Shown in pieces: positions 1 through 56,749 of a DNA stretch of 64,000 nucleotides (position 1 is the first letter of the stretch; the number at the start of each line of letters is the position of its first letter). This DNA is from Dehalococcoidia bacterium (lineage in GTDB: Bacteria; Chloroflexota; Dehalococcoidia; UBA6926). The stretch covers positions 96,001 through 160,000 of the forward strand of contig CAXXET010000004.1 in assembly GCA_963666115.2 (NCBI GenBank), read 5' to 3'. The notes beneath the pieces were generated by a model. The model did no database searches. It had not been told where the DNA came from and saw nothing but the letters and a program-made list of their open reading frames with translations. The position numbers were made by a program, and so were the translations under genes.

Positions 1-1469
1 TCATCTTCCTCAAGTACATCTCCGATGCCTTCGAGGAAATGCACACCTGGTTGGAGTCGATGACGGCTGAGGGATACGACCCGGAGGACATGGATGAGTA
101 CCGGGGCGAGAATATCTTTTGGGTTCCGCCAGAAGCGCGCTGGTCGCGCTTGAAAGAGCAGGCGCGGCAGTCGACTATCGGCCGACTGGTGGACGACGCT
201 ATGGCCGCTGTGGAGCGCGACAACCCGGGGCTCAAGGACGTGCTGCCCAAAGATTACGCCCGACCTGCCCTGGACAAGGCGCGTCTTGGCCAGCTGATTG
301 ACATGATCAGCAACATCCGGGTAGGAGACGCAGAAGCGCGTTCCAGGGATGTCTTGGGCCGAGTGTACGAGTATTTCCTGTCCCAGTTCGCCAGCGCCGA
401 AGGCAAAAAAGGCGGCGAGTTCTACACCCCGCGCTCAGTCGTACGCCTCCTGGTGGAGATGCTGGAGCCATACAGGGGCCGCGTCTATGATCCCTGCTGC
501 GGCTCCGCCGGCATGTTCGTCCAGTCGCTGGAGTTCATCGACGCCCATGCCACCGGGAACGGCAACGGCGGCAAGGCCCGAAGCCGCGTTTCCATCTGGG
601 GCCAGGAGTTCAACTACACAACCTGGAAGCTGGCAAAGATGAACCTGGCTATCCGGGCCATCGACCATGACAATATCGCCCATGGCAACAGCTTTCTCAA
701 CGACCGCCATCCCGACCTCAAGGCCGACTACATCCTGGCCAACCCGCCCTTCAACGTCTCAGATTGGAACGGGGAACACTTGCGGGATGACAGGCGGTGG
801 AAGTACGGCCTCCCGCCCGCCGGCAACGCAAACTTCGCGTGGGTGCAGCACTTCATCCATCACCTGTCCCCGCGCGGCACGGCAGGTTTCGTCCTCGCCA
901 ACGGCTCCATGTCGTCCAACCAATCCAACGAAGGTGAGATCCGCAAGAACATCATCGAGGCGGACCTGGTGGACTGCATGGTGGCTCTGCCCGGCCAGCT
1001 CTTCTACTCCACCCAGATACCCGTCTGCCTCTGGTTCCTCTCCAAAGATCGCAGAGGCGGCAACTACCGGGATCGGCGGGGCGAAGTACTGTTCATCGAC
1101 GCCCGCGCGCTGGGGCGCATGGTGGACCGCGTCCACCGGGAACTGACTGACGACGACATCGCCCGCATCGTCGGCGCCTACCACGCATGGCGTGGCCACT
1201 CCCCTCTCCCCCAGGGAGAGGGTCAGGGTGAGGGCTACGCCGACGTCCCCGGATTCTGCAAAAGCGCCTCGCTCGAAGAGATTCAGCGGCACGGCTGCGT
1301 CCTCACCCCCGGCCGCTACGTCGGCGCAGCCCCGCAAGAAGACGATGGGGAACCCTTCACGGACAAGATGGCCGCCCTCTCAACCCAATGGCGAGAGCAG
1401 CAAGCGCAAGCCGCCAAACTGGACGCCGCCATAGAAGACAACCTGCGTAAACTGGGGTTTGGAGGATAA
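1..1469 (+). CDS. hsdM: Type I R-M methyltransferase subunit M (5' end lies before the window)
   Basis: [16 protein letters not shown] (motif I), NPPF (motif IV), PGQLFYST and LTPGRYVG motifs; the frame is open from the window start. Confidence 0.96.
1201..1234 (+). repeat. Palindromic repeat family C, in-frame inside hsdM
   Basis: cccctctcccccagggagagggtcagggtgaggg encodes the [11 protein letters not shown] segment; near-identical copy at 31347-31380. Confidence 0.85.
1440..1468 (+). repeat. 29-bp direct repeat, copy 1 (hsdM 3' end)
   Basis: aacctgcgtaaactggggtttggaggata, identical at 1901-1929. Confidence 0.95.
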
Positions 1470-1558
1470 GCAGACGCATAGATCGAAGTCGTAGAATAGA
1501 CACGATGACAATCACACCAGGTCGCAATGGCCTGGCCTACTGGGCAATGGAGAGATAG

Positions 1559-1843
1559 ATGATTCGGCCAACTAAGGTTGAGGCGCGAGAGGGATACCGG
1601 ATATGGATTCGCTATTCCGACGGTGCGGAGGGAGAAGTTGACCTCTCGGCCCTTGCCGGCAAGGGCGTCTTTGCCGCCTGGAATGAGCCGGGCTATTTCG
1701 ACAGGGTTCACATCAACGAGGCCGGCGACGTCGCATGGAGTGATGAGATCGACCTCTGCCCCGAATCCCTCTACATGGACCTCACCGGCAAATCCGCCGA
1801 AGAAGTAATGCCCGGCCTGCTGCCCAGGACCCAGGATGCCTGA
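1559..1843 (+). CDS. DUF2442 family protein (putative antitoxin)
   Basis: 94 aa, YRIWIRYSDGAEGEVDLS...VAWSDEIDLCPESLY pattern; RBS ggaga. Confidence 0.8.
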   Translation: MIRPTKVEAREGYRIWIRYSDGAEGEVDLSALAGKGVFAAWNEPGYFDRVHINEAGDVAWSDEIDLCPESLYMDLTGKSAEEVMPGLLPRTQDA

Positions 1844-1894
1844 GATCGGGCGCAGCGCCATGAGCCGCCCGGCAAGATAGACCCGCTCCCGTAG
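1836..1894 (+). pseudogene. Internally deleted DUF4160-like remnant
   Basis: ATG CCT GAG ATC (MPEI) overlaps the DUF2442 stop and is joined out of frame to ...HEPPGKIDPLP-stop; these resemble the two termini of DUF4160 partners. Confidence 0.5.
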
Positions 1895-1900
1895 GAACAG

Positions 1901-1929
1901 AACCTGCGTAAACTGGGGTTTGGAGGATA
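1901..1929 (+). repeat. 29-bp direct repeat, copy 2
   Basis: Identical to 1440-1468. Confidence 0.95.
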
Positions 1930-1932
1930 GCG

Positions 1933-2178
1933 ATGACTGTCAATGAACTGGCCCAATTGCTGGCGGCATATCCACCCGACCTGCGCGTGGTGGTGGACGG
2001 CTACGAGGACGGCTACGACGACCTATCGCCGGAACAGCTCGCTATGGCTAAGGTTGCCTTGGATGTGGGAGACCAGGATTGGGTCGGCAAGCATGGAGAT
2101 GCCAACTATCTGCCTCAAGAGAAGCTGGTCGGCCTCAAGGTTGAAGAGGCTTTGGTTCTGCGTCGGACGTCGCACTAA
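1933..2178 (+). CDS. Small acidic hypothetical protein
   Basis: 81 aa, MTVNELAQLLAAYPPDLRVVVDGYEDGYDDL; the RBS ggagg is supplied by the duplicated hsdM end. Confidence 0.7.
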   Translation: MTVNELAQLLAAYPPDLRVVVDGYEDGYDDLSPEQLAMAKVALDVGDQDWVGKHGDANYLPQEKLVGLKVEEALVLRRTSH

Positions 2179-2219
2179 GGAGTGTGGAAGGGCTAGGCGA
2201 CCTGCGAACAGATTCAGTC

Positions 2220-3092
2220 ATGACCGAGACAACTAATCCCGACCCAAGGACGCTCAGCTTCTCCCAGGCCAACGGCTACGAAGACTTGCCTCAGCCACTG
2301 GCCTTAGAAGAAGTCAGCTATGACGCGCGCCGCAAACTTTGGGACCTTTTGTGGCTATCCGCTTGGGAACATGATTGGGATGACTGGGCCACGGACTATT
2401 GGCCTAATGTCTTTCAGACTCTCCATCTAGAGTTCATGAAGGAGCCTCTGGATGAGTTTGACGCTGATGCGGATGTAATACGGAAAATTTACAGGCCCCT
2501 GATCCTGTCGGATCTTTCATTTCACATCTTGTTTGATTTGTGGCAGATGATTATGCGGCATCGTCGGTGCCCAAAAACGTTTGTTAGTACCACTGCGGCG
2601 ATCTTTGAGGAATGCCGCCTCGCTTACGTTGTGGATACGACCGGCCCGCCAACGATACTCCCTGCCGCGACTCCCCAGGAGGGCGAGGCATTGATCGCCG
2701 CTCTGCGAAATCTAAAGGATGGTGGCTATCTGGGGGCAGAGACTCACCTGCGGGAAGCGGGAACCCAGATCAACGCCGGAGAGTGGGCGGAGTCGGTTCG
2801 CGAGAGCATTCATGCGGTGGAATCCGTCGCCCGCGTGCTTGACCCCCAAGACACCAACACCCTGGATGACGCGCTCAAATCGTTGGAGAAGCAGATTCGA
2901 ATTCATCCCGCTCTCAAAGGTGCCTTCAGCAGGCTGTACGGCTACACGTCTGACGAGACGGGAATCAGGCACTCCCTGCTGGAAGACGACACCTCGCCTG
3001 TCGGTCGTGACGAAGCTGTCTTCATGCTCGGGGCCTGCGCCTCTTTCGTCACCTATCTCCTAAGCAAGCGCCGCGCAGGAGTATCCCCATGA
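2220..3092 (+). CDS. AbiJ-NTD4-like protein with C-terminal HEPN/Abi_C-like domain
   Basis: N-terminal SFSQANGYEDLPQPLALEEVS..RRKLWD; C-terminal ESIHAVES..LYGYTSDETGIRHSL; ATGA overlap with hsdS. Confidence 0.72.
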   Translation: MTETTNPDPRTLSFSQANGYEDLPQPLALEEVSYDARRKLWDLLWLSAWEHDWDDWATDYWPNVFQTLHLEFMKEPLDEFDADADVIRKIYRPLILSDLSFHILFDLWQMIMRHRRCPKTFVSTTAAIFEECRLAYVVDTTGPPTILPAATPQEGEALIAALRNLKDGGYLGAETHLREAGTQINAGEWAESVRESIHAVESVARVLDPQDTNTLDDALKSLEKQIRIHPALKGAFSRLYGYTSDETGIRHSLLEDDTSPVGRDEAVFMLGACASFVTYLLSKRRAGVSP

Positions 3093-4282
3093 CCTCCCCA
3101 CCATCCCTTCCCAACGGCTGGCGCGAGGTGACGCTTGGCGACGTCATGACTTTTCAGCGTGGCTTTGACTTGGCGCAAACTAAGCGCATACATGGACCAT
3201 ATCCCGTGATTGCATCCACAGGCGAGGTCGGAAATCACAACGAGGCAGCGGTCAAAGGGCCTGGAGTAGTAATAGGTCGTTCCGGCAGTTTGGGCGGCGG
3301 TCAATACATCCGCGGCGACTACTGGCCCCTGAATACTGCCCTCTGGGTCAAAGATTTTCACGAGAATGACGTGAGGTACTGCTACTACCTTCTCGGCTCT
3401 CTTGACCTGGCTCAATTCAACGCTGGAAGTGGTGTCCCCACCTTGAATCGGAATCACATACACCCGCTTCCAGTCAAGGTCCCCCCGCTGCAAGAACAAC
3501 GCGCCATAGCCCACGTCCTCGGCACGCTGGACGACAAGATCGAGTTGAACCGCCAGATGAATGAGACGCTGGAGTCCATGGCGAGAGCCCTGTTCAAATC
3601 GTGGTTCGTCGATTTCGAGCCGGTGCGGGCCAAGATGGAGGGCCGGTGGCATCGAGGAGAATCCCTCCCCGGCCTCCCCGCCGAGTTGTTCGATCTCTTC
3701 CCAAACCGCCTAACCCCCTCCCAACTAGGCGAGATTCCAGAGGGCTGGCAGATAAAGCCGCTGGGAGAGGCGATTGAGTTGGCGTATGGTAAGGCTTTGA
3801 AAGCCGACAGCCGAAGGCCCGGCGATATTCCTGTCTATGGCTCAAATGGTCAAGTTGGCTGGCATGATGAGGCTCTGGTCAAGGGCCCCGGCATTGTAGT
3901 TGGAAGGAAAGGGAACCCGGGTATCGTTACGTGGTCTCAAACCGACTTCTTTCCCATTGACACCACCTTCTACGTAGAACCTGCCGATGGTGAACTCAGC
4001 ATGGCGTTCTTGTTCTATTCGCTCTGTCGGCAGGATTTGCCGTCAGTGGCCGCCGACTCTGCCGTACCTGGGCTAAATCGCAACCTCGCCTATTCGAACG
4101 CACAATTGCTTCCTGCGTCGGATGTGCTGCGCGAATTCGATCATACTGTTGAGACGATGTTCGCACAGCGCAACCAACTTGAAACTGAATCCCGCGCACT
4201 GGCCGCACAACGGGATGCCCTGTTGCCGCGGCTGGTGAGCGGAGAGGTGAGGGTGGATGGGGGGAGTAGAATAACAGCATGA
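3089..4282 (+). CDS. hsdS: Type I R-M specificity subunit S
   Basis: Two TRDs separated by the conserved EQRAIAHVLGTLDDKIELN..LFKSWFVDF..LGEIPEGW; ends RDALLPRLVSGEVRV. Confidence 0.95.
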   Translation: MTSPPSLPNGWREVTLGDVMTFQRGFDLAQTKRIHGPYPVIASTGEVGNHNEAAVKGPGVVIGRSGSLGGGQYIRGDYWPLNTALWVKDFHENDVRYCYYLLGSLDLAQFNAGSGVPTLNRNHIHPLPVKVPPLQEQRAIAHVLGTLDDKIELNRQMNETLESMARALFKSWFVDFEPVRAKMEGRWHRGESLPGLPAELFDLFPNRLTPSQLGEIPEGWQIKPLGEAIELAYGKALKADSRRPGDIPVYGSNGQVGWHDEALVKGPGIVVGRKGNPGIVTWSQTDFFPIDTTFYVEPADGELSMAFLFYSLCRQDLPSVAADSAVPGLNRNLAYSNAQLLPASDVLREFDHTVETMFAQRNQLETESRALAAQRDALLPRLVSGEVRVDGGSRITA

Positions 4283-4767
4283 TGATGAGCGAAAACATGC
4301 GGAAGTCCCGCTTCTCCCTGTCGTATATCGAGGCAGTTGCATCGCATGCTGGCTTTCAGGTCGTCGAGCCTAAGGTGGACGAAGACAGCGTCGACGGAAT
4401 CTTGATGGGCGATTTCGGCAAGAGACCTCGAATCGAGTTTCAAGCCAAAGCGACTAGTCAGAACATTCTGCGTCCTGACGGCGTCCATTTTGACCTGCCA
4501 GTAAAAAACTACGAGGAATTGCGTCTGGAGACCATCGTTCCGCGGATATTGATAGTGATGCTGATGCCTGATTCACCGGAGGATTGGCTAAACCAGTCAG
4601 CGGATGAGCTTTGCTTGCGTCGCTGCGCATATTGGAGGTCGCTCAGGGACGAGCCCGCCACATCGAACAGTGACAGCGTCATGGTTCGATTGCCAACAGA
4701 GTATATTTTTGACAGTGATCGCCTCAGATGGATGATGGAACAGACCGAAAGGACAGGTGCGCTGTGA
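4279..4767 (+). CDS. DUF4365 family PD-(D/E)xK-like nuclease
   Basis: DEDSVDG..IEFQAKAT..PRILIVM..AYWRSL; overlaps the hsdS stop. Confidence 0.78.
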   Translation: MMMSENMRKSRFSLSYIEAVASHAGFQVVEPKVDEDSVDGILMGDFGKRPRIEFQAKATSQNILRPDGVHFDLPVKNYEELRLETIVPRILIVMLMPDSPEDWLNQSADELCLRRCAYWRSLRDEPATSNSDSVMVRLPTEYIFDSDRLRWMMEQTERTGAL

Positions 4768-5906
4768 ACATTGACATTCGCGACCGTCCCGCGCTGGGAT
4801 CCATTCCGATTATCAATCTTCGCTCTTACCTCGCATCTCGCGGCTGGACTGATTCAGGTAAGTGGGGAGAACGGCCAGTCGCGTTGTTTGCAGCCGAGCG
4901 GCACGGGAGAACGTGGGAGGTCTTGGTGCCGCTCCGCGACACCCTGGGCGGATACGCGGAAAACATGGCTGATGCGATTTCAGTCTTGGCAGCCGTAGAG
5001 GAACGGTCACAACTTGATATCTATAACGATCTGGTGGCTACGGGGGCCGATGTCGTTTATCTGCGTTCTCCGGTCGGCTCCAGCATGGAGACGCCTTCTA
5101 TACGACAGAGCTCCGAGATGTTGAGCGACGCCTACAAGATGCTTGAAGCTGGGGCCAGGGCGGTTGAAAAACCACGAGCCATTTACAGAGGCAAACTAAG
5201 TGCAGATGTTGCAGAGTATCTGGACAATGTGAAGCCGATGCCGGGATTCTCGGCATCCTTCGATCTAATGCTGCGCTCCCCTGTTCCAATGAGCTTTGAC
5301 ACCCAACAAGACTTGGGAGATGACTTTCAAGCCCCCTTCCCGCGTCTCGTTACACACAAGCTGGCCGAAGGCTTGAAGCATACTTCCGAAGCCGTTGAAA
5401 GTGTTCTGGCCCAAGACAACCTCGACTCATTCAAACAGGGCATCAATCGCGGCATAAGCGCGAATCTCTGCGACTCAATAGCCGATTTGGCGCATCGAGC
5501 CGAGGGGATCACAATCGGGCTTTCTTGGGCAGGAGTACGCCCTGCGAACATTGAAGACTCAACCTTCCGATTTTCATCTGCTTCAGCGGATATATTGACC
5601 GAAGCAGCAAAGTCCCTGCGAACCAAGGAAACGTCGTTCGACGAGACGATCATGGGACTTGTCGTCCGGCTAGAGAAGGAGCCAGGAGAATTTGACGGCA
5701 GGGCTACGATCGCATCCATCTGGGATGGACGGCTGACGCGAATGAATGCGGAGTTCGAAAAACCACTCTACGAAGAGGTCATTCGCGCCTTTAGAGACCA
5801 AGTTGACGTCTCTCTTGAAGCAGACGTTCATCCGTCCGGCAACGCGTTTCAGCTGCGCAACATCCGTAATCTCGTAGTCCATGCAAACGCTGCTCAGCCT
5901 GTATGA
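4764..5906 (+). CDS. Hypothetical protein, partner of DUF4365
   Basis: GTGA overlap with DUF4365 and ATGA overlap with hsdR; about 380 aa open frame; no catalytic motif recognised. Confidence 0.8.
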
Positions 5907-7369
5907 CCACGCTCACCGAAGCCGTCGTTGAAGAGGCCGCCCTTCACTGGCTGACCGCCCTCGGCTGGAACGTCGCGCACGGGCCGGACATCGCGCCGGG
6001 CGCCCCAAACGCGGAACGTGACGATTTCCGTCAGGTCATGCTGGAGCAGCGGCTGAGAGACGCCCTCGAGGAATTGAACCCCGCCCTGCCCGCCTCGGCA
6101 ATCGACGACGCCTTTCGCAAGCTCACGCGGCCCGACGGCGCGACCACGGAAACGCGCAACCGCGCATTCCACCGGATGCTCGTCAATGGCGTCACGGTGG
6201 AGTACCCGGAAGGCGAGGGACGCATTCGGGGGGCGCAGGTTCGGGTCATTGACTTTGATGACCCCGGAAACAATGGCTTCCTCGCCGTCAACCAGTTCAC
6301 TGTCAACGAGAACCGCAGCGCCCGCCGGCCGGACGTCATCCTTTTCGTCAATGGCCTGCCCCTGGGCATCATGGAGTTGAAGAATCCGGCGGATGAGGAC
6401 GCCACCATCTGGACGGCATGGCAGCAGCTCCAGACCTACAAGGCAGAGCTGCCCACCCTGTTTTCCATGAACGAGGCGCTGGTGGTCTCGGACGGCATGA
6501 CCGCCCGCCTCGGCGCGCTGACCTCCGGCCGCGAGTGGTTCAAACCCTGGCGCACGACCACCGGCGAGGCTCTCGCAGATTCCCGCATGACCGAGCTGCA
6601 GGTGATGCTGCAGGGCGTATTCGAGCCGCGCCGGTTCCTTGCCATGATCCGTGACTTCATCGTGTTTGAGGACGACGGGGGCGGCGCGCTTGCCAAGAAA
6701 ATGGCAGGCTACCACCAGTTCCACGCCGTCAGGGTTGCCGTCGATGAGACCCTGCGGGCGGCGGAACTACAGCGCGATGAAGCCGGGGTCGTGGAAGCGG
6801 GCGGCAGGTATGAATCCGGCAGCATGGCGGGCGGGCAACCCGGCGACCGTCGCATCGGCGTCGTGTGGCACACGCAAGGCTCCGGCAAAAGCCTGACGAT
6901 GGCTTTCTACGCGGGCGCGATTGTGCGTGAGCCTGCCATGGAGAATCCGACTATTGTCGTCCTCACGGACCGCAACGATTTGGACGACCAGCTATTCGGC
7001 ACGTTCTCCCGCTGCCAAGACCTGCTGAGGCAGCCGCCGACGCAGGCGGATAGCAGGGCGGACCTCCGGAAAAAGCTGTCCGTCAACGCAGGCGGCATCG
7101 TCTTCACTACCATCCAAAAATTCTTCCCGGAGGAAAAGGGGGATACGCACCCCACGCTTTCGGACAGGCGCAACATCGTCGTGATAGCGGATGAGGCGCA
7201 CCGCAGCCTCGCAGGCTACACGGCTACACGTCTGACGAGACCTGCAAAGACTAATGCGCTCTTGTCGTGGCTGATGCATAGAGAAGTTATGGTGGCAGGC
7301 ACTCTTGACGCAACCTCCATAGAATGGCACCTAAAGCGCGGTCAGGGGCACGCATGCTCTGGTGTATAA
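5903..7369 (+). pseudogene. hsdR: Type I restriction subunit R, truncated after helicase motif II
   Basis: [18 protein letters not shown] nuclease, WHTQGSGKS Walker A, then DEAHRS; homology ends at about 7208 and the remaining helicase motifs are absent. Confidence 0.9.
7211..7241 (+). repeat. 31-bp copy of an AbiJ gene segment (2929-2959) at the hsdR breakpoint
   Basis: gcaggctacacggctacacgtctgacgagac vs gcaggctgtacggctacacgtctgacgagac (2 mismatches). Confidence 0.85.
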
Positions 7370-7404
7370 TGAGTGAGCAACCTAATGTGTCAGGAGCCTC
7401 AGGA

Positions 7405-8517
7405 ATGTCCAGTGAAATTGAGCAGACAGACGATTTAGAGGTGGTGGACGAAGCCGAAGAGTCCGACGAGGCTTCTCCCTTCCGGTACCAGATAACAGCA
7501 TATGGCGCAGATTACCCCGTAGACGCCTTAGTGAAGAGGATTGCTTCAAAGGATATTGTAGTGCCGCGGTTCGATCCAGAAACGCCGGCGGAGGGCATCA
7601 GGGGCTTCCAGAGGCAATTCGTCTGGAATAAGGGCCAAAGCGATAGGTTTATCGAGTCGCTTCTGCTTGGCCTGCCGGTCCCCGGCATATTCCTTGTAAG
7701 CCAAGAAGATGGCCGCCTTCTTGTGCTGGATGGCCAGCAGCGGTTGCTGACTCTATACTCGTTTTGCTCAGGTGACACTCAGGCGAGAAAGCACAAATTA
7801 GAGCGAGTTCAGGATAGCTTTGCTGGGAAGACATACCAGACGCTTGATTTGGCAGACAGGCGGCGGCTTGATGATAGTATAATTCACGCCACAATCGTTA
7901 GGCAGGATGAACCATCGGATGATCAAAGTAGCATCTACATGATATTCGAAAGGCTTAACACGGGAGGTACGGCACTGCAGCCGCAAGAGATTCGCGTAGC
8001 TCTCTATGGTGGACCGTTTATGAACTTGCTGCGCGATTTGAATGAGTTCACGGCATGGCGAGATTTTTTTGGTACGAAGTCTACGCGCCTCAAAGATCAA
8101 GAGCTCATATTGAGGTTCTTCAGCCTGCTCTATAGGGAGCAGGATTATAAGCCACCTATGAAGGACTTCCTGAATCTCTATGCTAGCGAAAATCGTAAGT
8201 TGAATATTCAAAATGAAAGTGAACTTCGAGAGATTTTTGAATCCACAGTGAAAGCTCTCCGTCAGAGCTTGGGGAATCGTGCCTTTCGATTGGCTAACCC
8301 CCTTAATGTGGCAGTCATGGAGGCCGTGATGGTTGGGGTTGCTGCGCGCATACGTGAGCACGGCTTAATCACTGATTTGTCGGGGATTAATCAAGCTTAT
8401 AGAAACTTGCTTCTAAACAGTGCCTTTTTGGATTCTGTGACCAGCGGCACCACTCAAGAGGGAAACGTGAAGACCAGGCTGAGTCTCGCGAAGACGGCAA
8501 TGAAAGAACTAGTGTAG
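7405..8517 (+). CDS. DUF262 (ParB-like/GmrSD N-terminal) domain protein
   Basis: FQRQFVW, FIESLLLGLPVP, DGQQRL and IFERLNTGG motifs; RBS aggag at about 7392; alternative ATG at 7369. Confidence 0.9.
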   Translation: MSSEIEQTDDLEVVDEAEESDEASPFRYQITAYGADYPVDALVKRIASKDIVVPRFDPETPAEGIRGFQRQFVWNKGQSDRFIESLLLGLPVPGIFLVSQEDGRLLVLDGQQRLLTLYSFCSGDTQARKHKLERVQDSFAGKTYQTLDLADRRRLDDSIIHATIVRQDEPSDDQSSIYMIFERLNTGGTALQPQEIRVALYGGPFMNLLRDLNEFTAWRDFFGTKSTRLKDQELILRFFSLLYREQDYKPPMKDFLNLYASENRKLNIQNESELREIFESTVKALRQSLGNRAFRLANPLNVAVMEAVMVGVAARIREHGLITDLSGINQAYRNLLLNSAFLDSVTSGTTQEGNVKTRLSLAKTAMKELV

Positions 8518-8525
8518 GAAGTTCG

Positions 8526-8990
8526 GTGAAGACGCGCGCTGTTGTCGACAGAAAAAACAGGCTCGATGCTGTCTTTTCCCGGATTTCGAATCTCCCGGAA
8601 GAATCGTTGCAAGTCAGGGCAGATTTCGCAGCTTATCTCTGCGTATTGACATGTGGTTTCCTTGAGGCAGCCGCTTCTGAAATTGCGTTGGAATATTGCA
8701 GAGACAAGTCATCTCCAAGAATCCAAAATTTTGTGGAGAATCGTTTGCAACGTCCCAGCAACATGAATGCTGAGCAACTGAGACAATTGGTCGGCTCTTT
8801 TGATTCTGGATGGGGTGAAAGAATTGCCGAGTACTTGCAAGGCGCCCGGAAAGAGGCAGTGGATTCCTTGTACGCAAACCGGAATCGCATTGCTCATGGT
8901 GATCCTGTTAGCCTGACTTTTTCAAGAGTGCAGGAGTATTATGGAAAGGTCAGCGAAGTTGTTGAATATCTTGAAGAGATATTCAGTTGA
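8526..8990 (+). CDS. HEPN RNase (MAE_28990/RiboL-PSP-like)
   Basis: CGFLE helix and RNRIAHG (Rx4H) motif; 8 bp downstream of DUF262. Confidence 0.85.
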   Translation: MKTRAVVDRKNRLDAVFSRISNLPEESLQVRADFAAYLCVLTCGFLEAAASEIALEYCRDKSSPRIQNFVENRLQRPSNMNAEQLRQLVGSFDSGWGERIAEYLQGARKEAVDSLYANRNRIAHGDPVSLTFSRVQEYYGKVSEVVEYLEEIFS

Positions 8991-9190
8991 ACTTTGCGAC
9001 AATCCCTTCTTGTGACCACCTCGCCAGTTCTGGAATTCAAGATGCTTCCCTTGCTTGCCTGAGCGGCCCTAACTGGCAAGCGGAGCACAGGCCGAAGGTT
9101 ACGTTCCAACTCTGCGATCAGACGCCATCCAACACCTCAACCCCCTCCCAAGTCAACCCTCCCCATCCCCAGCCGCCTCCATCGTCATTC

Positions 9191-10852
9191 CTACCTCCCA
9201 TTCAGCTCCCCCGCCAGCGCGCACCCCGTGTCGTAGTCCCCTGTCGAGGAAAACCACAGCTTGTAGCACCACCGCGTGAACGGCGCAATTCGCCCACCGC
9301 GGACGGCAATCTCATAACTCCCGTCCGCGTTCTCCGACACCCCCACCGTCACCCCGCCCCCAATCTCGCGGGATTCCCCGTCATGGAGCACCGAATAATC
9401 GTCCCTGCCCCACCCGACAGCCTCATTCACGTCAGGATTGCGGATGTCATACAGCGCCGGCCCCAGCCGCGTCTGCGTGCCGGTTCCGGCGGACTGGTCA
9501 TACCGACTGATCAGCGCCCCGCTGTAGCGGAACGGTCTCAGCCCGTCGGGCGCGTCCGGGTCATAGACGATCGGGCTGTCGTCGATATAGATGTCGTCGC
9601 GTTCGTCCAGTACCTCCACCGTCGTGAACGCGTGGGGCCGGCCGGACGAAATGACGAGGAGTTGGTAGCCGTCCTGGAGAGGCGGCTGTAGCGTGTAGAC
9701 GCCCTCGTAGGCCAAATGCAGCGCAACGTCCGACGGATCGATCCACCCCGCGCTGTACCTGTTGATTGCCATCGTCGCCGGCATCTTGTCGCTCCAGCCC
9801 TTAACCGGCGGCAGCGTGAGCGCCGACATCACGTCCAGGTGGTTGCTGTATGGGTTCGGCGGCTCCAGACCATCGTCCACGCCCTTCGGCTTCCAGCCAA
9901 TCTCAGTGAATGAGTGCGGCCAGTTCATCCAGCCGTGCCCAATCTCATGCACCAGTACCTGCATGCTTGCCTGTGAGACGCTGACCAGCCCAAAGTCCGC
10001 GCTGCCGGCGAAGCCCTGCCCGGCCGAATAGGCCGTGACGTCGACCAGCAAAATGCGGTGGATGCCGGCCGGCTCCGAAAGTGTACACAGCGCCCGCGTA
10101 TCCCCCTCGGCGCAATCCCGTATGCCGGCCAGCCGCAGTTGCTGCTTCTTCGCGGTATCGTGGGAACCGTCGCCCTCCACGACGAAATCGCTTCCAGGCG
10201 CAAAGGAGAACCGCAGCTTGCCGCTGGAGATGCGCCGGTAATAGGCCGCAACATACTCATTGAGCGTAGCGACGGCCTCCTCCATGCTCATTGATTCGCG
10301 CGCGCCGTCGTCGTTGAACCACCCGCCCTTCCCCACCGGCACGCGGGCAATGTCAACACTGATAACCAGGTCGCCGAGCGAGTAATAGGTGGGGTCTATC
10401 GGCGCATCGAGGTAGGTCTTCTCCGGGTCTGACGTCGTCCGCGTGCAGCCGTTGTAGGTCATGAACGTCCAGGGAATATGGCTGTCGTTGCCGTGCCAGC
10501 GCACCAGCGACAGCGCATCCGCCCCGCCCAGGTCCGCCATGCCCGCCTCGATCCACGGGGACGTTTCCTTTTCAGGCGTGATGCACGTGTATGGGGCGCG
10601 CGGCCTGAACCAGTGCGGCGTGCCCATTCCAAGATCGATGTCCGCGACAAGGTTTTCTTGGCCGCTGCCGGGCGCCGGCTCCGGCGATTCGACCGGAGGC
10701 GGAATGGGCGACGGCTCAGGCGTGTCCACGTCCTCTGAGTCGCCCACGCACGCCGCTCCCACCACAAGCGCGAACGCCAGCAACGCCAGAATCGCGAACG
10801 CCCTGCCAATCGCCATCCAGCCCTCCCCGCCCATTATCCGCCGCATCATCAT
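9191..10852 (-). CDS. Putative lipoprotein zinc metallopeptidase (M6/M11-like)
   Basis: Signal peptide with lipobox GAAC, HEIGH zinc motif, NPYS..DVMS Met-turn, RYSAGWI. Confidence 0.7.
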   Translation of the reverse strand: MMMRRIMGGEGWMAIGRAFAILALLAFALVVGAACVGDSEDVDTPEPSPIPPPVESPEPAPGSGQENLVADIDLGMGTPHWFRPRAPYTCITPEKETSPWIEAGMADLGGADALSLVRWHGNDSHIPWTFMTYNGCTRTTSDPEKTYLDAPIDPTYYSLGDLVISVDIARVPVGKGGWFNDDGARESMSMEEAVATLNEYVAAYYRRISSGKLRFSFAPGSDFVVEGDGSHDTAKKQQLRLAGIRDCAEGDTRALCTLSEPAGIHRILLVDVTAYSAGQGFAGSADFGLVSVSQASMQVLVHEIGHGWMNWPHSFTEIGWKPKGVDDGLEPPNPYSNHLDVMSALTLPPVKGWSDKMPATMAINRYSAGWIDPSDVALHLAYEGVYTLQPPLQDGYQLLVISSGRPHAFTTVEVLDERDDIYIDDSPIVYDPDAPDGLRPFRYSGALISRYDQSAGTGTQTRLGPALYDIRNPDVNEAVGWGRDDYSVLHDGESREIGGGVTVGVSENADGSYEIAVRGGRIAPFTRWCYKLWFSSTGDYDTGCALAGELNGR

Positions 10853-17605: not shown

Positions 17606-17685
17606 CAAAAACTAGACAGATTATCCCCATCGCGGGATGATACCCCCACAATCGGCGGGTGTGGCAGAACAGGGGGAGGACTGTC

Positions 17686-39513: not shown

Positions 39514-39995
39514 CAGTAGCAGACAGGCTAAAGGAACTCGGCATCACCCTCCCCCCGCCCGCCACCCCCGGCGGCAACTACACCCCCGCCAACCTGGTAG
39601 GCCACACCCTCTACGTAGCAGGCCAACTCCCGACGGTTGACGGCGAGTTGGTCGCGACGGGCAAGGTCGGCGCGGACGTGACCATCGAGCAGGCGGCGGA
39701 GGCGGCTCGCATCTGCGCGCTAAACGCGCTGTCCGCCGCGGAAAACGTCCTTGACGGCGGGCTGGACGCGGTGGAATCCCTGACGCGCATCACGGTATTC
39801 GTCAATGCCGTGCCGGACTTCGCCCAGCAATCCATCGTGGCCAACGGCGCGTCAGATTTCCTCGTCGAAGTCCTCGGCGAAGCGGGCCGCCACGCCAGAA
39901 ACGCCATCGGAGTAGGCTCCCTCCCCCGCAACGCCCCAGTAGAAGTAGAAACCACCTTCAAAGTAAAGAGCAACGACAAACGATATTCGGGGTGA
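39510..39995 (+). CDS. RidA/YjgF family protein
   Basis: LKELGITLP, VANGASD, GRHARNAIGVGSLP. Confidence 0.9.
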   Translation: MTVADRLKELGITLPPPATPGGNYTPANLVGHTLYVAGQLPTVDGELVATGKVGADVTIEQAAEAARICALNALSAAENVLDGGLDAVESLTRITVFVNAVPDFAQQSIVANGASDFLVEVLGEAGRHARNAIGVGSLPRNAPVEVETTFKVKSNDKRYSG

Positions 39996-40019
39996 CAGGT
40001 TTGGCTGCGCGGTTAGCCC

Positions 40020-40388
40020 TCAGGGGCGCGCCTCGATAACCACGCGGCCACCCTCGACGATTTCCACGTGGAGGTCATGGCCGTAGAGAAACTCCATGCC
40101 GACGATAGGTATCTCGCCAACCACGTTGGCTTCGGCTAGCCGCGGGGCGTTGCTCCACACAACGACGACCTGGCAAATATCGAAATCCACCGGCCGACCG
40201 TCCACCAGGGCTGCCCGGCCGGTTCGCAGCCGCGGCGCTTGCAGTTCGGCTATGAGTCCGGGCGGCAGCGCCAACGATCCGTCAAAGCCTGTGTCGATGA
40301 TTGCGTCAACGTCACGTCTTTCGCCCGCCGGAGTCAGCAAGGCAAGCCTGATGACAGGCACGTATGAGGTGAAATGCCCCAGGGTCAC
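40020..40388 (-). CDS. Clan AA (retropepsin-like) aspartic protease
   Basis: IDTGF active site, IVGMEFL; GTGA overlap with the upstream gene. Confidence 0.85.
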   Translation of the reverse strand: MTLGHFTSYVPVIRLALLTPAGERRDVDAIIDTGFDGSLALPPGLIAELQAPRLRTGRAALVDGRPVDFDICQVVVVWSNAPRLAEANVVGEIPIVGMEFLYGHDLHVEIVEGGRVVIEARP

Positions 40389-41056
40389 TGAGGACCCCGG
40401 CCCATGACTCCCCAGCCGAACTTCTGCATCTGCCCATGACCGACGCGCACGGACCAGACTTGACGTGCGCCTGAATGCCGCCAGCGCAGGAGTCCGACCG
40501 CAACGTCGCCCTCCTCACCTAGAGCCCACTCCCCGGTCTCAACATCAATAACGCAGATCTCACCGACGTGATCTTTCTCCACGAGATGGCGAATGTTCTC
40601 TTCGTAGATTTCGTCACCGAGCCGGGCGATCTCCTCGGTTGGGCGAGAGGGAGAGCGATTCGATCCTGCCAACAGGGTCACTCTCAGCGCCTCCCGTTCC
40701 TCATCGCTCATTCGCACATCTCCGGCGAGACCGGAAGAGTCACGATGAACCGACGTGGGCGTTCGTGGCGAAGCGGCAATTTTGTACGAGGCCCAGGGTC
40801 CAATTCGCAGCGACCAGACATTGTGAGCGTCACGGCTCTTCTCGCGTAGGCGCGCGCTCGCCTCCAGGCTATCCTCGCCAATCGCCCACGCGCCGCTGTC
40901 CACGTCAATCGCACAAACCTCGCCGGTGTGATCGTCGTCAACCAGAACCTCGATGCTGCTAACGTATATTTCTTCGCCCATTCGGCGGATTTCCGCTATA
41001 GGTCGGGATGGCGGCGCGGGTTCCGCCGGCGGGGGTTCCCTTTCTTCGGTTCTCAT
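40385..41056 (-). CDS. Protein with two tandem DUF5678-like domains
   Basis: Internal repeat EIRRMGEEIY..HTGEVCAIDVDSGAWAIG / EIARLGDEIY..HVGEICVIDVETGEWALG. Confidence 0.7.
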   Translation of the reverse strand: MRTEEREPPPAEPAPPSRPIAEIRRMGEEIYVSSIEVLVDDDHTGEVCAIDVDSGAWAIGEDSLEASARLREKSRDAHNVWSLRIGPWASYKIAASPRTPTSVHRDSSGLAGDVRMSDEEREALRVTLLAGSNRSPSRPTEEIARLGDEIYEENIRHLVEKDHVGEICVIDVETGEWALGEEGDVAVGLLRWRHSGARQVWSVRVGHGQMQKFGWGVMGRGPQ

Positions 41057-41113
41057 ATGTCCGCCCTCATTGAGTATCCGTCGTTTTGCGACCAGTCTAA
41101 CACCACGAGCGCC

Positions 41114-52343: not shown

Positions 52344-52952
52344 TCAGAATAAAACGTCGCCCACAAAGGGCAGATTCTGGAGGAAATCGATGCTGTAGTA
52401 GCCCGCCAGCGCGATTGCCGTCACGAGGATGAGCTTGCCGCCAAACACGATCAGCAGGAAGCGCGCCAGCGGATACCGGATCGCCCCCGCCCAGATGCCC
52501 GCGATGTCGAACGGCAGCGGCGTCGCCGCGAAGGCGAAGATCGCCAGCCCCCGCCACCGTTCCCCCACGCCCTCCAGCCGCGCGTGCCACCTGCTCCCCT
52601 CGATCATCGACGACCCGCCCCGTCCCGCCATGTACGCCGTGATCTCCCCCAAAGCAGCGCCCACCGCGCCAAACAGCCCGATCAGCAGCGGGTTCAGCGT
52701 CCCCGACACCGCGAAGATGACCGCGTGGCCCGGCACCGGCAGCAGCACGACCGTCGCGCTGTTGATGAGTTGCAGCAGGAACACCCCTGCGTAGCCCCAC
52801 TCGCCCAGCCCCTCCACGAAGCTCGCGTAGCGAATGAGAAGCACGATGACGATAAGCGAGATGACCAGCGCTGCGCCCACCTGGAGAATCGGTACGACGC
52901 GGTTCCGCCGCTCCCCGCCCCCCGGATCGCCCGCCTGCGCCGCGTTAGCCAA
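52344..52952 (-). CDS. VTT/DedA family membrane protein
   Basis: PVPG, GAALGE..YMAGR, PFDIAGI..G. Confidence 0.8.
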   Translation of the reverse strand: MANAAQAGDPGGGERRNRVVPILQVGAALVISLIVIVLLIRYASFVEGLGEWGYAGVFLLQLINSATVVLLPVPGHAVIFAVSGTLNPLLIGLFGAVGAALGEITAYMAGRGGSSMIEGSRWHARLEGVGERWRGLAIFAFAATPLPFDIAGIWAGAIRYPLARFLLIVFGGKLILVTAIALAGYYSIDFLQNLPFVGDVLF

Positions 52953-53715
52953 GCGTCACGTCCCCCGCGTGAACCACCCTCCGCTGCCCGTCATCCGTCT
53001 GGACGACCAGCCCCCCGCTCGGTTCGACGTCCAGCGCGATGCCCTCAAACGTCGAATCGCTGCCGGACACGCTCACGCGCTTGCCGAGGTTGACGAGAGC
53101 CGCGCGCCATTGGTCGAACACGTCTCCGCCCTCCCGCGCCTCCACGTACAGCGCCTCCATCTCCTCCAAAAGAGCGCACAACAGGTCAAGACGCGAAACC
53201 TCCCCGCCCGTCTCCCTGCTAAGACTCGTGGACGCGTCGGCGATCTCCGGTATGGACGCCGTATCCCAGTTGACGTTGACGCCGATGCCAACAATGGCGA
53301 ACTGGTCCGCCTCCGATTCGTCCCGCACAACCTCAACGAGAATGCCGCAAACCTTGCGCCCGCCAATGAGCACGTCGTTCGGCCACTTGATCTCAGGCGC
53401 AAGCTCCGGGCAGACCCGCCGGATCGCGCGCGGCACGGCAAGCGCGGCAATCATCGACAGCGACGGCAACAGTTCCGGGCTCGGCCTCAACAGGACTGAG
53501 ACCAGCAGCGACGCCCCTGGCGGCGACATCCACGACCGCCGGAATCGCCCCCTGCCCCGCGTCTGCTCGTCCGCGGTGATAACCAGCCCCTCCGCAGCCC
53601 CCGCCCGCCCGGCCGCCGAGACATCGTCCTGCGTGGAATGAGTAAGCGCCAAATGCCGGTACTCCGCCCCAATGATCCTCGTCGAAAGCCGCTCCCGAAC
53701 CGCAGATTCATTCAA
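52945..53715 (-). CDS. birA: Biotin-protein ligase (no HTH)
   Basis: STQD, QTRGRGR..W, KWPND, KVCGIL, GIGVNV. Confidence 0.93.
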   Translation of the reverse strand: MNESAVRERLSTRIIGAEYRHLALTHSTQDDVSAAGRAGAAEGLVITADEQTRGRGRFRRSWMSPPGASLLVSVLLRPSPELLPSLSMIAALAVPRAIRRVCPELAPEIKWPNDVLIGGRKVCGILVEVVRDESEADQFAIVGIGVNVNWDTASIPEIADASTSLSRETGGEVSRLDLLCALLEEMEALYVEAREGGDVFDQWRAALVNLGKRVSVSGSDSTFEGIALDVEPSGGLVVQTDDGQRRVVHAGDVTLG

Positions 53716-53755: not shown

Positions 53756-53781
53756 TGTCATTCTGAGCGGAGCGAAGAATC
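53756..53781 (+). repeat. Family B repeat upstream of the aldo/keto reductase
   Basis: tgtcattctgagcggagcgaagaatc, between TATAAT (53739) and the RBS ggagga. Confidence 0.85.
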
Positions 53782-53803: not shown

Positions 53804-54751
53804 ATGCAATACCGTCGTCTGGGCAACTCAGGCCTCCAGGTCTCCACCGTCGGGCTCGGCACCAACAACTTCGGCAGGCGGCTCGAATACGAACAGAGCG
53901 AGGCGGTCATCAAGGCGTCGCTCGATAACGGGATCAACTTCATCGACACAGCCAACATCTACAGCATGGGCGAGTCCGAAGAACACATCGGGCGCGCCCT
54001 CAAGGGCAGCCGCGAGGCGGCGGTCATCGCCACCAAGGGCGGCGGTCAAATGAGCCAGGGCCCCCACGGCAGCGGCAACTCCCGCAAGCACATCACAGCC
54101 GAGGTGGAGGCCAGCCTAACACGCCTCCAAACCGACTACATCGACCTCTACCAAATCCACTTCCCGGACAACGACACGCCCATCGAAGAGACGCTCCGCG
54201 CGCTAGACGATCTGATCCACGCCGGCAAGATTCTGTACATCGGCAGCTCCAACTTCGCCGTATGGCAGGAGGCGGAGGCCGCGTGGACAAGCCGCCACCT
54301 CGGCCTCAACAGCTTCATCAGCACGCAGCCGGAATACAGCCTCATCAACCGCGACGTCGAGCGTGAACTGATCCCCTTCGCCGTCAAGTACAACATTGGC
54401 GTCATCCCCTATTTCCCGCTCGCCGGCGGCGTCCTCACCGGCAAGTACACGCAGGGACAGGAGCCGCCGGAGGGCACGCGCATGTCCACCACCCCCGCCA
54501 ACTTCCGCGGCCGCTTCATGAACGACCGCACCTTTGCCATAGCCGACGTCGCCGCGAAATTCGCCGAACAGCGCGGTCACACAACGGTCGAACTCGCCAT
54601 AGCATGGCTGCTAGCCCAGCCGCAGGTGGCAAGCGTCATCGCAGGCGCAACCCGCCCCGAACAAGTACAAGCAAACGCAAAGGCCGCAGACTGGACCCTA
54701 ACCCCCGAAGAAGTAACAGCCCTAAACGAAAAGCTAACCGCCCTCGGCTAG
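53804..54751 (+). CDS. Aldo/keto reductase
   Basis: DTANIY, IATK, YIDLYQIH, PYFPLAGG. Confidence 0.95.
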   Translation: MQYRRLGNSGLQVSTVGLGTNNFGRRLEYEQSEAVIKASLDNGINFIDTANIYSMGESEEHIGRALKGSREAAVIATKGGGQMSQGPHGSGNSRKHITAEVEASLTRLQTDYIDLYQIHFPDNDTPIEETLRALDDLIHAGKILYIGSSNFAVWQEAEAAWTSRHLGLNSFISTQPEYSLINRDVERELIPFAVKYNIGVIPYFPLAGGVLTGKYTQGQEPPEGTRMSTTPANFRGRFMNDRTFAIADVAAKFAEQRGHTTVELAIAWLLAQPQVASVIAGATRPEQVQANAKAADWTLTPEEVTALNEKLTALG

Positions 54752-54774
54752 CCCACCCCCGTCACCCAACCCCT

Positions 54775-54839
54775 CCGTCATTCCCCCCAACCCTCCGTCA
54801 TTCCGGCGAAGGCCGGAATCCATCCCCCCTCACCCTAAC
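54775..54839 (+). repeat. Family A repeats plus a family C fragment
   Basis: Partial ccgtcattcc, full ccgtcattccggcgaaggccggaatcc, then cccctcaccctaac. Confidence 0.85.
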
Positions 54840-55280
54840 AACATAATTCTGCAAATCATCCTGCGTCGAATAATGCCGACCCTCCGCAAACATCTCCGTC
54901 AGACGCTGGAACAGCAGCGGCCCCACCTGCGACACCGCCTCCTCCAAATCGGCTGAAACGATGGACACGTCCGGGAATGCTACGGGCGTCGCGCGGTACT
55001 CCCCCTCCTCCGTCCGCTGGATCATCACGATATACGGCGACGTATCGCCGCGACGCGGATTCCGCACCCACACAGTCCGAACGGGAGGCCACTCCTCACG
55101 CGGCGTCTCGCCGCCCTCCGCGATGATCTCCCCAAGCGCGATCCCCGCATTGTCGGCCACGTCGTCCAACGCCGCCGCCCGCGTCGCCCCCTGCCCCGTC
55201 ACGCCCGCAATCGCAGGCACTACCGCGCTGTAAGACCCGTCCTCATTGGACAGCAGAACCGCCGTGTACGATGGCGCCAT
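54798..55280 (-). CDS. Tandem HicB-like domain protein (no adjacent HicA)
   Basis: YTAVL..EDGSYSAVVPAIAG..QGAT..A and a second YIVMI..EEGEYRA..AFPD; the C-terminus is read from the repeat. Confidence 0.65.
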   Translation of the reverse strand: MAPSYTAVLLSNEDGSYSAVVPAIAGVTGQGATRAAALDDVADNAGIALGEIIAEGGETPREEWPPVRTVWVRNPRRGDTSPYIVMIQRTEEGEYRATPVAFPDVSIVSADLEEAVSQVGPLLFQRLTEMFAEGRHYSTQDDLQNYVVRVRGDGFRPSPE

Positions 55281-55297
55281 ATCCTCCCCCGTTGTAG

Positions 55298-56749
55298 CTA
55301 CTCGCCCCCAAATAGCGACGCCGCCGCAGTCTCCGCCGCCTCCGCCAACGGCCTCACGTACAGCCCGCCCGCCACGATCGCAACGAGCAAGCCCAGTATC
55401 AGCAGCCACATCGTCCTCGATACGCGAATCGGCCCCGCGCCCTCCTCCGGCTGCTCAATGTACATCTGCCTCACGATATTCAGATAGTAGTACAGCGAAA
55501 TCAGGCTGGCGAATATGGCGATGCCCACCGGAACGAGGAATCGCGTCCCCGCCGTCGCCACCACCGTGAACAGGTAGAACTTGGACGCGAACCCGATGAA
55601 GAACGGGAATCCGGCCAGGCTGAACAACGCCCCCGTCAACGCCAGCGCCAGGAACGGGTTGCGCCGCGCCAGCCCCGCCACGTCGCGCACCCCCTCCTTG
55701 CCCGTCTGCTGCCACACCGCAAGCAAAACCATGAACGCCACCATCGTGGACGCCGCGTAGCTCACGCTGTGGATCAGTATCCCCGCAGCCGGTTTCGCGG
55801 GGTCGTCTGCCCCCAGCGCCGCGATCCCCAGCAGCAGGTAGCCCACCTGCCCGATGCTCGAATACGCCATCAGCCGTTTCAGATTCGACTGCAAGATAGC
55901 GACGAGGTTGCCGAGCATCATGCTCAGCACCGCCAGCAGGATGAACACCCAGTCCCAGAAGAGCGCGACCGGCTCCAGCGCGACGGCAACCAGCCGGATC
56001 AACAACGCGAACCCGGCGGCCTTGGACGCCGCCGCAAGGTACGCCGTAATGGGTATCGGCGCGCCCTCGTACACGTCCGGCGTCCACATGTGGAACGGCA
56101 CGGCGGCCACCTTGAACCCCAGCCCCGCCGTCAACATCGCCAGCGCGATGATCAGCCCCGGGCTTGGTGAAAGCGTGCTCAGCCCGCTCGCCACCTCGTC
56201 GTAGCGCGTGTCGCCCGTCAGCCCGTAGATGTACGTGATGCCCAGCAAGAGGAACGCCGACGCAATCGCCCCAAGCAGGATGTACTTCATCCCCGCCTCG
56301 TTCGTCCGCCGCTCCTTCCACGTGTACGACGCCAGGATGTACAGCGAGAAGCTCAACAGCTCCAGCGAGATATACGCCGTGATCAACTCGCCCGCCGCCG
56401 CCATCCCCATCGCGCCCACGGTGGCCATCATCAGGAGAGCCACGAACTCGCCGGGGCTGTCAATCGACGACACGAATTGCGACGAACCGAGAATCGTCAC
56501 CGCCGCGAGGATCACGAACAGCGCGAAGAAGAACGCGGAATACGTATCGAAGATGAGGATGCCGCCTGCGAAGCGGCTCGTCTCGCCGTCGTTCGCAACG
56601 ATGATGAACACGCCAATCGCGGCCATGACCGCCGCGCCCCCGTACACCAGGACGGTCCGCGAGAGGCGCGGCACAATCAGGTCGAGCGTGAACGCCCCGA
56701 ACGCAAGGCCGGTCACGAGATAGCCCGGCAACAGCAGCGCCCAGTTCAT
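55298..56749 (-). CDS. nuoN: Complex I subunit N
   Basis: EAGMKY, FKVAAVPFHMWTPDVYEGAP, AYSSIGQ, YYYL. Confidence 0.95.
   Translation of the reverse strand: MNWALLLPGYLVTGLAFGAFTLDLIVPRLSRTVLVYGGAAVMAAIGVFIIVANDGETSRFAGGILIFDTYSAFFFALFVILAAVTILGSSQFVSSIDSPGEFVALLMMATVGAMGMAAAGELITAYISLELLSFSLYILASYTWKERRTNEAGMKYILLGAIASAFLLLGITYIYGLTGDTRYDEVASGLSTLSPSPGLIIALAMLTAGLGFKVAAVPFHMWTPDVYEGAPIPITAYLAAASKAAGFALLIRLVAVALEPVALFWDWVFILLAVLSMMLGNLVAILQSNLKRLMAYSSIGQVGYLLLGIAALGADDPAKPAAGILIHSVSYAASTMVAFMVLLAVWQQTGKEGVRDVAGLARRNPFLALALTGALFSLAGFPFFIGFASKFYLFTVVATAGTRFLVPVGIAIFASLISLYYYLNIVRQMYIEQPEEGAGPIRVSRTMWLLILGLLVAIVAGGLYVRPLAEAAETAAASLFGGE

Follow-up and report, generated by a model that had tools for sequence, protein, structure and literature searches.

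Introduction

CGTC-1 repetitive extragenic palindromes (REPs), which correspond to dRS3 of Neisseria and RPE-6 of Rickettsia, are mostly arranged as head-to-head dimers, and the accessible part of their description lists CGTC repeats in five phyla, among which Chloroflexi is not named, and contains nothing on strand bias or flanking halos of these elements (Di Nocera, De Gregorio & Rocco 2013, PMC3733652). Here we analyze a 64,000-nucleotide (nt) stretch of the genome of a Dehalococcoidia bacterium (C4:96,001-160,000; hereafter the window, meaning this whole stretch), where genes flanking a CGTC-1-like hairpin repeat, R1, or the companion repeat families R2 and R3 have lost G and T from one DNA strand over a few hundred nucleotides, a pattern that we refer to as a halo. 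We propose, with a probability of roughly 0.6, that two layers are superposed in this genome (2.07 Mb, 63.5% GC, 9 contigs): a regional asymmetry of the replication type and an oriented local halo centered on the repeats, the latter resulting from recurrent exposure or resynthesis of one strand.

In the features covered by the accessible text on CGTC-1 REPs, R1 shares with them the CGTC tag, an 8-bp stem starting with A-T, a 4-nt loop, a CCA-type tail, a mostly intergenic location, a high copy number and the lack of a dedicated transposase (only PF01797 was searched here). It differs in the arrangement of its units, as neighboring repeats less than 150 nt apart share the same orientation in 81 of 84 pairs, that is, head-to-tail rather than head-to-head. 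REP/BIME-RAYT systems (REPINs) are more distant, featuring a RAYT gene, a GTAG tag and inverted pairs in place of the CGTC tag and direct pairs seen here. Single-stranded DNA (ssDNA) transposons, namely IS200/IS605 and REP/BIME with RAYT, are co-oriented with the replication fork through insertion into the lagging-strand template, a co-orientation that the present repeats resemble, and the accessible portions of the corresponding studies describe no flanking mutational footprint (PMC3971601, PMC3333891). Unlike in those systems, the Y1/RAYT transposase (PF01797) was not found in the genome under study (G000) or in four congeners (G004, G007, G013 and G018), other transposase families not having been searched.

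Replication-associated skew is alike in its independence of gene orientation, its 100-300-kb domains, its sharp flips and the excess of G and T on one strand; however, it typically entails two switches, whereas we observe at least five with a graded sawtooth amplitude, a second, repeat-centered local layer, and an amplitude that differs strongly among congeners at the same loci. Diversity-generating retroelements introduce adenine-specific, template-copied changes by means of a reverse transcriptase (not searched here), whereas the changes reported below consist of G and T loss from one strand, lie on either side of the repeats and affect numerous unrelated housekeeping genes. Further local one-strand changes beside DNA transactions are the leakage of repeat-induced point mutation in fungi and Okazaki-junction signatures. 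Kataegis, APOBEC clusters and repair-induced flanking mutagenesis likewise produce local one-strand changes of the C-to-T type beside the site of a DNA transaction but, as far as the accessible text describes them, these are eukaryotic and mostly single events, in contrast to a pattern that is bacterial, evolutionary, repeat-centered and filtered by selection (PMC3999860). No report of repeat-centered, strand-specific halos in bacteria was found in the literature covered, which included the accessible part of PMC8266576 and did not extend to subscription journals.

Repeat families are oriented with the regional skew

R1 (consensus CCGTC-ATTCCSGC-GAAR-GCSGGAAT-CCA; core ATTCCSGC-NNNN-GCSGGAAT, with GAAA, GAAG, GTAG or GCAC loops) has 151 copies in the genome, of which 5 lie in the window; most copies begin with ccgtc-ATTCC and, by inspection of the listing, continue after GGAAT with cca or cta. 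It folds as an 8-bp stem with a predicted energy of -8.9 kcal/mol, equal on both strands; GCGAAAGC mini-hairpins are known for their special stability. R2 (90 copies) shares the GTCATTC...GAATCC ends with R1, and its predicted fold is no better than that of shuffled sequences, while R3 is present in 74 copies. Where the absolute regional skew is at least 0.1, all three families are strongly oriented, with 121 R1 copies in line with the skew and 9 against it, and corresponding counts of 74 versus 4 for R2 and 50 versus 11 for R3. The repeats of the complete congener genome G013, which we sampled as 17 x 20-kb pieces (about one-fifth), follow the same rule.

The 27-nt R1 core is found unaltered across many phyla, with records labelled as Gamma-, Beta- and Alphaproteobacteria, Dehalococcoidia/Chloroflexota, Acidimicrobiia, Nitrospirae, Terriglobia and one Bathyarchaeota metagenome-assembled genome. 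At 73 single-copy loci of the identical 27-mer in other taxa the flanks have an A+C content of ~0.50 and no halo, and the halo is hence neither part of the element nor its general consequence. In Dyella, the same core is arranged in inverted pairs.

A strand-specific halo surrounds the repeats

Genes were called with a codon-usage caller made for this analysis, which yielded 1,690 genes (82% of the genome) and missed some genes of low-GC islands. Read in the frame of the repeat, GC skew at 4-fold degenerate sites lies between -0.6 and -0.75 within 150 nt and returns to about -0.3 to -0.4 beyond 400 nt, and AT skew is +0.5 to +0.65 near repeats versus about 0, a profile that holds on both repeat sides and in genes of both orientations. 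The halo reaches ±200-300 nt (~250 nt) from each repeat or cluster, as a further depletion of G and T from the C-rich strand of the repeat, and retains its codon structure (GC content.77-.79 at third versus.45 at second codon positions), showing that it lies in real coding DNA.

Paired comparisons of the fraction of third positions occupied by A or C (hereafter A/C) support this profile at the level of single repeats (.725 within 200 nt versus.632 at 400-1500 nt; 87/105 repeats, p=2e-12) and of clusters (.693 near versus.612 further away; 155/190 clusters, p=3e-18), the 5' and 3' sides being alike (.702 and.673). In 30 clusters that lie in regions without skew, the halo still follows the orientation of the repeat (.631 versus.543, p=0.002). 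The effect of dose is weak, the halo amounting to +.072 for one repeat unit, +.115 for two and +.110 for three or more.

An earlier note on this DNA, which had first pointed to A- and C-ending codons beside repeats and cassette junctions, held that its interpretation would fail if skew were equal at gene ends lacking repeats or uniform along the replichore. Both points were addressed, and neither refuted it: 582 intergenic gaps without a repeat within 1.5 kb show no difference between near and far positions (p 0.7-0.8 in three skewed strata), and skew is not uniform but peaks at repeats. A generic gene-end effect, apparent at first, was gone once these repeat-free gaps served as control.

The individual intervals that the note had picked by eye were ranked against all same-length runs among the 20,125 third positions of the window (mean A/C 0.590), the share given here being that of runs at least as high. 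Most fall in the upper tail of the window: 17400-17570 (A/C 0.89, share 0.000), 26125-26300 (0.90, 0.000), 39900-39970 (0.96, 0.003), 54659-54748 (0.90, 0.006), 18780-18970 (0.77, 0.046), 33290-33400 (0.78, 0.049), the birA 5' end at 53560-53652 (0.77, 0.076) and 25020-25140 (0.75, 0.087). For 19980-20140, the A/C itself is 0.91 (36 C, 13 A, 4 G and 1 T of 54). The claimed shift is weak at 1300-1460 (0.70, 0.153) and 3660-3740 (0.81, 0.044, n=27), both located more than 13 kb from any recognized repeat, inside a restriction-modification island.

For the aldo/keto reductase gene (53804-54751, + strand; Pfam domain at residues 16-310 of 315), the reported composition of the last 30 sense codons, 27 ending in A or C, 3 in G and none in T, holds exactly (15 A, 12 C, 3 G and 0 T on recount). 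Because A/C outside these codons already amounts to 72% in this gene, the figure of 27/30 is only modestly unusual (p=0.016); the A-endings stand out more sharply (15 in these 30 codons versus 31/285 elsewhere, p=1e-7). With a window background of 59% A/C at third positions and values of up to 74% in single genes, one could argue that there is no local effect at all and that peaks of a uniform, replichore-wide skew had simply been selected by eye. We give this next to no credence, as it is contradicted by the paired near/far tests, the repeat-free controls and the cross-species differences described below.

The halo is derived and has accumulated under a constant selective filter

To place these observations in an evolutionary context, we compared the window-syntenic 55 kb of five genomes of the same genus (G003, G004, G007, G013 and G018). 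At columns aligned across the six genomes, A/C in G000 rises from.60 far from its three private repeats to.79 beside them, whereas the five relatives remain flat at ~.5. The 3' end of the reductase gene gives the same picture over a wider sample: 11 congeners with 92-94% protein identity lack the downstream repeat and carry 15-19 G in the last 30 third positions, as opposed to 3 in G000. In this region, G000 departs from the congeners at 6 of the final 32 residues of the reductase. The halo is not an assembly artifact, as its sequence is matched at 90-95% by contigs of related strains that stem from two further studies (read runs labelled as sponge or marine metagenomes, with generally short contigs of low depth).

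In the G013 sample, 23 clusters of G000 have orthologous flanks but no repeat, with a halo of +.110 in G000 and +.020 in G013 and a positive difference in 19 of the 23 (p=0.002). These data bear directly on a preference of the repeats for landing in already skewed DNA. The innermost 100 nt of the repeat-less G013 sites do show an A/C of.65 over a baseline of.55, as such a preference would predict, but the per-cluster value in G013 is not significant and the 11 congeners have no halo at the reductase end, which makes insertion preference a very unlikely source of the pattern.

The halo signature consists of G loss (to A and C) and T loss (to C) on the repeat's C-rich strand, or C-to-T and A-to-G on the complementary strand, as exposure of one strand would give. 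The sequence context of the G-to-A changes is confounded by the genetic code. Where the relatives agree on a + strand G, G000 has lost it near repeats at 18/17/56% of codon positions 1/2/3, compared with 10/8/36% far from repeats. The pressure toward G loss is thus ~1.6 to 2 times higher near repeats, while positions 1 and 2 lose G ~3 times less than position 3, near and far alike. The identity of the selective filter favors a lasting local bias of mutation over a single burst, and the raised loss at positions 1 and 2 implies faster amino-acid change at gene ends.

A one-off, kataegis-like shower, in which each repeat or cassette insertion would have brought a single strand-coordinated burst in resected flanks, could account for the coordinated polarity and for the halos that flank inserts found only in G000. 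A single burst would nonetheless be unfiltered, in conflict with the roughly threefold difference between codon positions, and the halo in G000 does not depend on whether the repeat is shared with G013 (+.111 for shared and +.110 for unshared repeats), so that we regard this scenario as improbable. We find it only slightly easier to credit that selection keeps the flanks poor in G, be it to spare the single-stranded repeat (DNA or RNA) from competing pairing or to meet another sequence requirement. Self-pairing is impossible for a strand consisting of A and C, and the involvement of codon positions 1 and 2 would fit; yet the halo extends over 200-300 nt on both sides, genes of both orientations are affected and their transcripts therefore carry opposite flanks, the identical repeat has no halo in other taxa, R2 forms no hairpin, and the C-rich flanks could still pair with the G residues of the stem.

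A regional asymmetry underlies the local layer

The earlier note had also stated that polarity tracks the DNA strand and not transcription, and this is borne out: + strand GC skew at 4-fold sites is negative in 48 of the 51 called window genes, on both strands. In the ~170-kb domain that includes the whole window (C4:40-210 kb), every 10-kb bin is negative (-0.15 to -0.51). Throughout the window (1-64000), silent sites favor C and A on the + strand, and G and T on the - strand, whichever way a gene is oriented; because the skew spans the entire domain, much of the A/C preference reflects the domain as a whole. The shift is consequently local only in part; the repeat-centered halo is real, but much of the excess that had been read as local belongs to a domain-wide strand asymmetry.

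The congeners do not share this regional layer at the same loci. Over 6167 conserved 4-fold sites, the base frequencies of G000 are C.592, G.275, A.081 and T.052 (skew -0.37), while the five congeners have C.33-.39 and G.38-.41 (skew 0 to +0.11). A + strand G on which four or more relatives concur is now C in 37% and A in 7% of cases, and a + strand C is retained in 87%. The GC content of the same genes at 4-fold sites is.87 in G000 against.72-.80 in the congeners, a strong shift of silent-site composition in one species.

On the G000 contigs, silent-site GC skew takes the form of a sawtooth, with sharp minus-to-plus switches and gradual returns through zero. At least five such switches are present on contigs C4, C6, C7 and C8 (C6:158,022, C4:209,132, C8:111,482, C7:182,637 and C6:459,913), and their neighbors include rpoD-dnaG, the region upstream of gyrB, and a glmU-like gene. 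Meanwhile, dnaA (C8:66 kb) is not at a switch, an unusual pattern for a bacterium with one dnaA. The C6:158,022 and C4:209,132 switches are collinear in four complete congeners, which rules out rearrangement or mis-assembly as the cause of these two, and at least two minus-to-plus switches are also present in the complete genome G013. An archaeal-type multi-origin chromosome was considered and rejected, as Cdc6 is absent and DnaA present.

Origin of the halo

Under the two-layer reading, the complement of the repeat's C-rich strand would repeatedly be left single-stranded around the repeats or, alternatively, the repeat strand would undergo repeated resynthesis that starts at a nick, a primer or a pause site. 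Deaminated C and A, or A-C mispairs, could then be fixed as G-to-A and T-to-C changes on the repeat strand, and strong GC pressure would later turn many of the new A into C. Such a G-to-A-to-C path would be compatible with both the regional flux from G to C and the excess of A near repeats, and the halo would represent the same kind of asymmetry that gives rise to the regional skew, amplified locally. The earlier proposal that nicking or recombination exposes one strand to C-to-T change survives in part: the derived one-strand signature fits exposure, whereas nicking or recombination as its cause finds no support.

Several observations weigh against the two-layer reading. No enzyme or event could be identified for the halo, and no Y1/RAYT transposase is present. 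UDG, EndoV, MutS, MutL and HhH-GPD (5 copies) are all present as in the congeners, so that loss of these repair genes, which we had considered, cannot explain the strength of the halo. The regional spectrum is mostly G-to-C (the 37% of sites given above), and a fit to deamination requires the two putative steps. The lack of a hairpin fold in R2 and the equal folding of R1 on both strands render a simple hairpin model insufficient. The 12 clusters that oppose the regional skew have only a small halo without statistical significance, and the relatives' own repeats carry a weaker halo (15/21 sites, some of them mutually orthologous, p=0.01). At the 7 repeat sites common to G000 and G013, it amounts to +.111 and +.061, respectively. 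Moreover, 9 of the 18 strongest A/C peaks of the window are not within 600 nt of a recognized repeat. Finally, a contig of a close strain from run X2 (depth 3.2) joins position 54753 directly to 54830, with the 76-nt repeat stretch (54754-54829) replaced by 11 other letters, and its sequence past the join is nevertheless 95% like the G000 halo. This comparison of assembled sequences indicates an apparent presence/absence polymorphism of the repeat at 54753-54830 among close strains. A repeat-less contig with a halo means that halos can outlast or precede repeats.

The latter result keeps alive a common-cause explanation, in which sites prone to strand-specific exposure, for instance by fork pausing, both attract oriented repeats and deaminate in their flanks, the repeat serving only as a marker of the halo. 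Further points in its favor are the window peaks without a recognized repeat, which make up half of the total, the halos at two insert junctions, of which one has a repeat remnant and at the other no repeat was found, and the oriented insertion of ssDNA transposons at forks, as described in the accessible parts of PMC3971601 and PMC3333891. The weak dose effect fits this explanation and a repeat-driven halo equally. On the other hand, orthologous congener sites without the repeat show no halo, so that proneness would have to be lineage-specific at each site, and repeat-free gaps show nothing; we therefore consider a common cause unlikely.

The two inserts found only in G000 (25142-26123 and 39996-41113) are flanked by derived, strand-specific halos of ~180 nt, and in this respect the reported association of halos with accessory inserts stands. 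The earlier note had taken it further, viewing the repeats as marks of a dedicated system for cassette exchange and diversification, and accessory genes do adjoin repeats or remnants (20301-21050; 25142-26123). This part is not supported: the halos lie in housekeeping genes, are mostly synonymous and have been filtered by purifying selection in the way that distant sites have. Nor was an associated recombinase or transposase found (Y1_Tnp being absent), and all five congeners share the conserved recombinase-domain gene at 23900-25141. We regard such machinery as extremely improbable.

As a more far-reaching and doubtful extension of the two-layer reading, the REP-type repeats of this genus may be polar sites at which a strand-specific DNA transaction (nick, primer or pause) recurs, and may act as local mutators with footprints of ~250 nt on each side, possibly feeding the domain skew. 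If so, each repeat would roughly double G loss at amino-acid-changing positions nearby and, as repeats come and go, their footprints could contribute to skew at the domain scale. The conserved sawtooth switches would in turn point to several initiation zones or another polar process instead of a two-replichore chromosome. More broadly, small intergenic repeats would be more than passive or regulatory elements and would act on the adjoining genes as local, strand-specific mutators, and part of what appears as replication skew or gene-end codon bias would be repeat footprint, with a bearing on skew-based origin prediction, substitution models, estimates of dN/dS at gene termini and the question of how REP orientation is set in transposase-less families. 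With hundreds of oriented sites per genome that are present or absent between species, these repeats would offer a natural system for bacterial single-strand exposure.

Halos and repeats along the window

All features in this section lie on the + strand unless stated otherwise, and congener values refer to the orthologous codons. The leftmost halo covers the 3' end of a CopD-like gene (17147-17572) at 17400-17572 (A/C 0.89), next to an R2 repeat of the GTCATTC...GAATCC type located by pattern match at 17583-17604, a weak palindrome; third-position A/C in the last 20 codons is 0.95 as opposed to 0.20-0.65 in the congeners. The following two CoA-transferase III genes are separated by an R1 at 18915-18942 (CGTC tag, 8-bp stem, GAAA loop), which is read through in frame. 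The halo at the 3' end of the first gene (18741-18900) includes a 30-codon run with an A/C of 0.90, and the last 40 codons have 0.75 in G000 versus 0.40-0.71 in the congeners. In the window, the two tandem genes form one 829-amino-acid (aa) open frame through R1 (17659-20148), the A/C-rich repeat DNA being devoid of stop codons. At the 3' end of the second gene, the halo at 19980-20148 has the composition given above for 54 third positions and abuts an array at 20156-20264, where two R1 copies (cores 20161-20180 and 20237-20256) and CGTCATTCC half-sites share one orientation; G003, G007 and G013 also have a repeat at this site. Downstream, 20301-21050 is lineage-specific, as is 9191-10852, both being absent at the same places in the five congeners, and the lineage-specific window genes include a DUF429 gene directly after a REP array.

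The first of the two inserts, at 25142-26123, encodes an unknown 148-aa protein and a PIN-domain protein (Pfam) in a toxin-antitoxin-like arrangement and has no match in the five congeners, whose flanking genes abut. On its left, the halo at the 3' end of the recombinase-domain gene (24960-25141) raises A/C in the last 60 codons to 0.70-0.80, compared with 0.20-0.65 in the five congeners, the values being equal beyond. On its right, an internally deleted R1 remnant, CCGTCAT-GCCGGAATCCAC, is discernible by direct reading at 26055-26075, and the halo at the 5' end of the metallophosphoesterase gene (26124-26300) reaches 0.85-0.90 over the first 60 codons versus 0.25-0.65 in congeners. Beside the second insert (39996-41113), the 3' end of a YjgF/RidA-like gene carries a halo at 39815-39995, with 0.75-0.95 in the last 60 codons versus 0.35-0.75 in congeners and equal values beyond; no R1, R2 or R3 was found at this halo or its junction with the insert.

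Two R1 copies lie between convergent genes and are restricted to G000. The one at 33401-33428 is flanked by halos (33283-33545) at the 3' ends of 32897-33433 (+) and 33425-34006 (-), whose last 40 codons have a + strand A/C of 0.70 and 0.80 versus 0.31-0.47 and 0.47-0.68 in congeners, respectively. The other (core 54800-54819, GAAG loop) occupies 54774-54822 together with a CGTCATTCC half-site and is found in G000 only among 12 species. It is bordered by the halo of the reductase 3' end (54620-54751), with an A/C of 0.93 in the last 40 codons versus 0.42-0.47 in congeners, and by that of the convergent gene 54798-55280 (halo at 54831-54960, - strand), whose last 40 codons have a + strand A/C of 0.90 versus 0.53-0.60 and which holds the top 30-codon run of the window (0.97). 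An R2 is also present at 53759-53780, in the divergent spacer between the reductase gene and birA (52945-53652, - strand, Pfam).

Gene content of the window

Positions 1-9700 form a lower-GC type I restriction-modification island without counterpart in the syntenic stretches of the five congeners. Its genes, assigned by Pfam, follow the order hsdM, a DUF2442 gene, hsdS, a DUF4365 gene and the N-terminal part of hsdR, which ends after 488 aa, and then GmrSD-like and RiboL-PSP HEPN genes. Among the other genes with Pfam assignments in the window are addA and addB, the two CoA-transferase III genes, the recombinase-domain gene, the genes for L21 and L27, ftsY, hisD, hisG and a nuo operon. On the - strand, 21852-23906 is a single 683-aa frame that combines a tRNA (uracil-5) methyltransferase domain with a Maf domain, which a fusion or read-through may explain.

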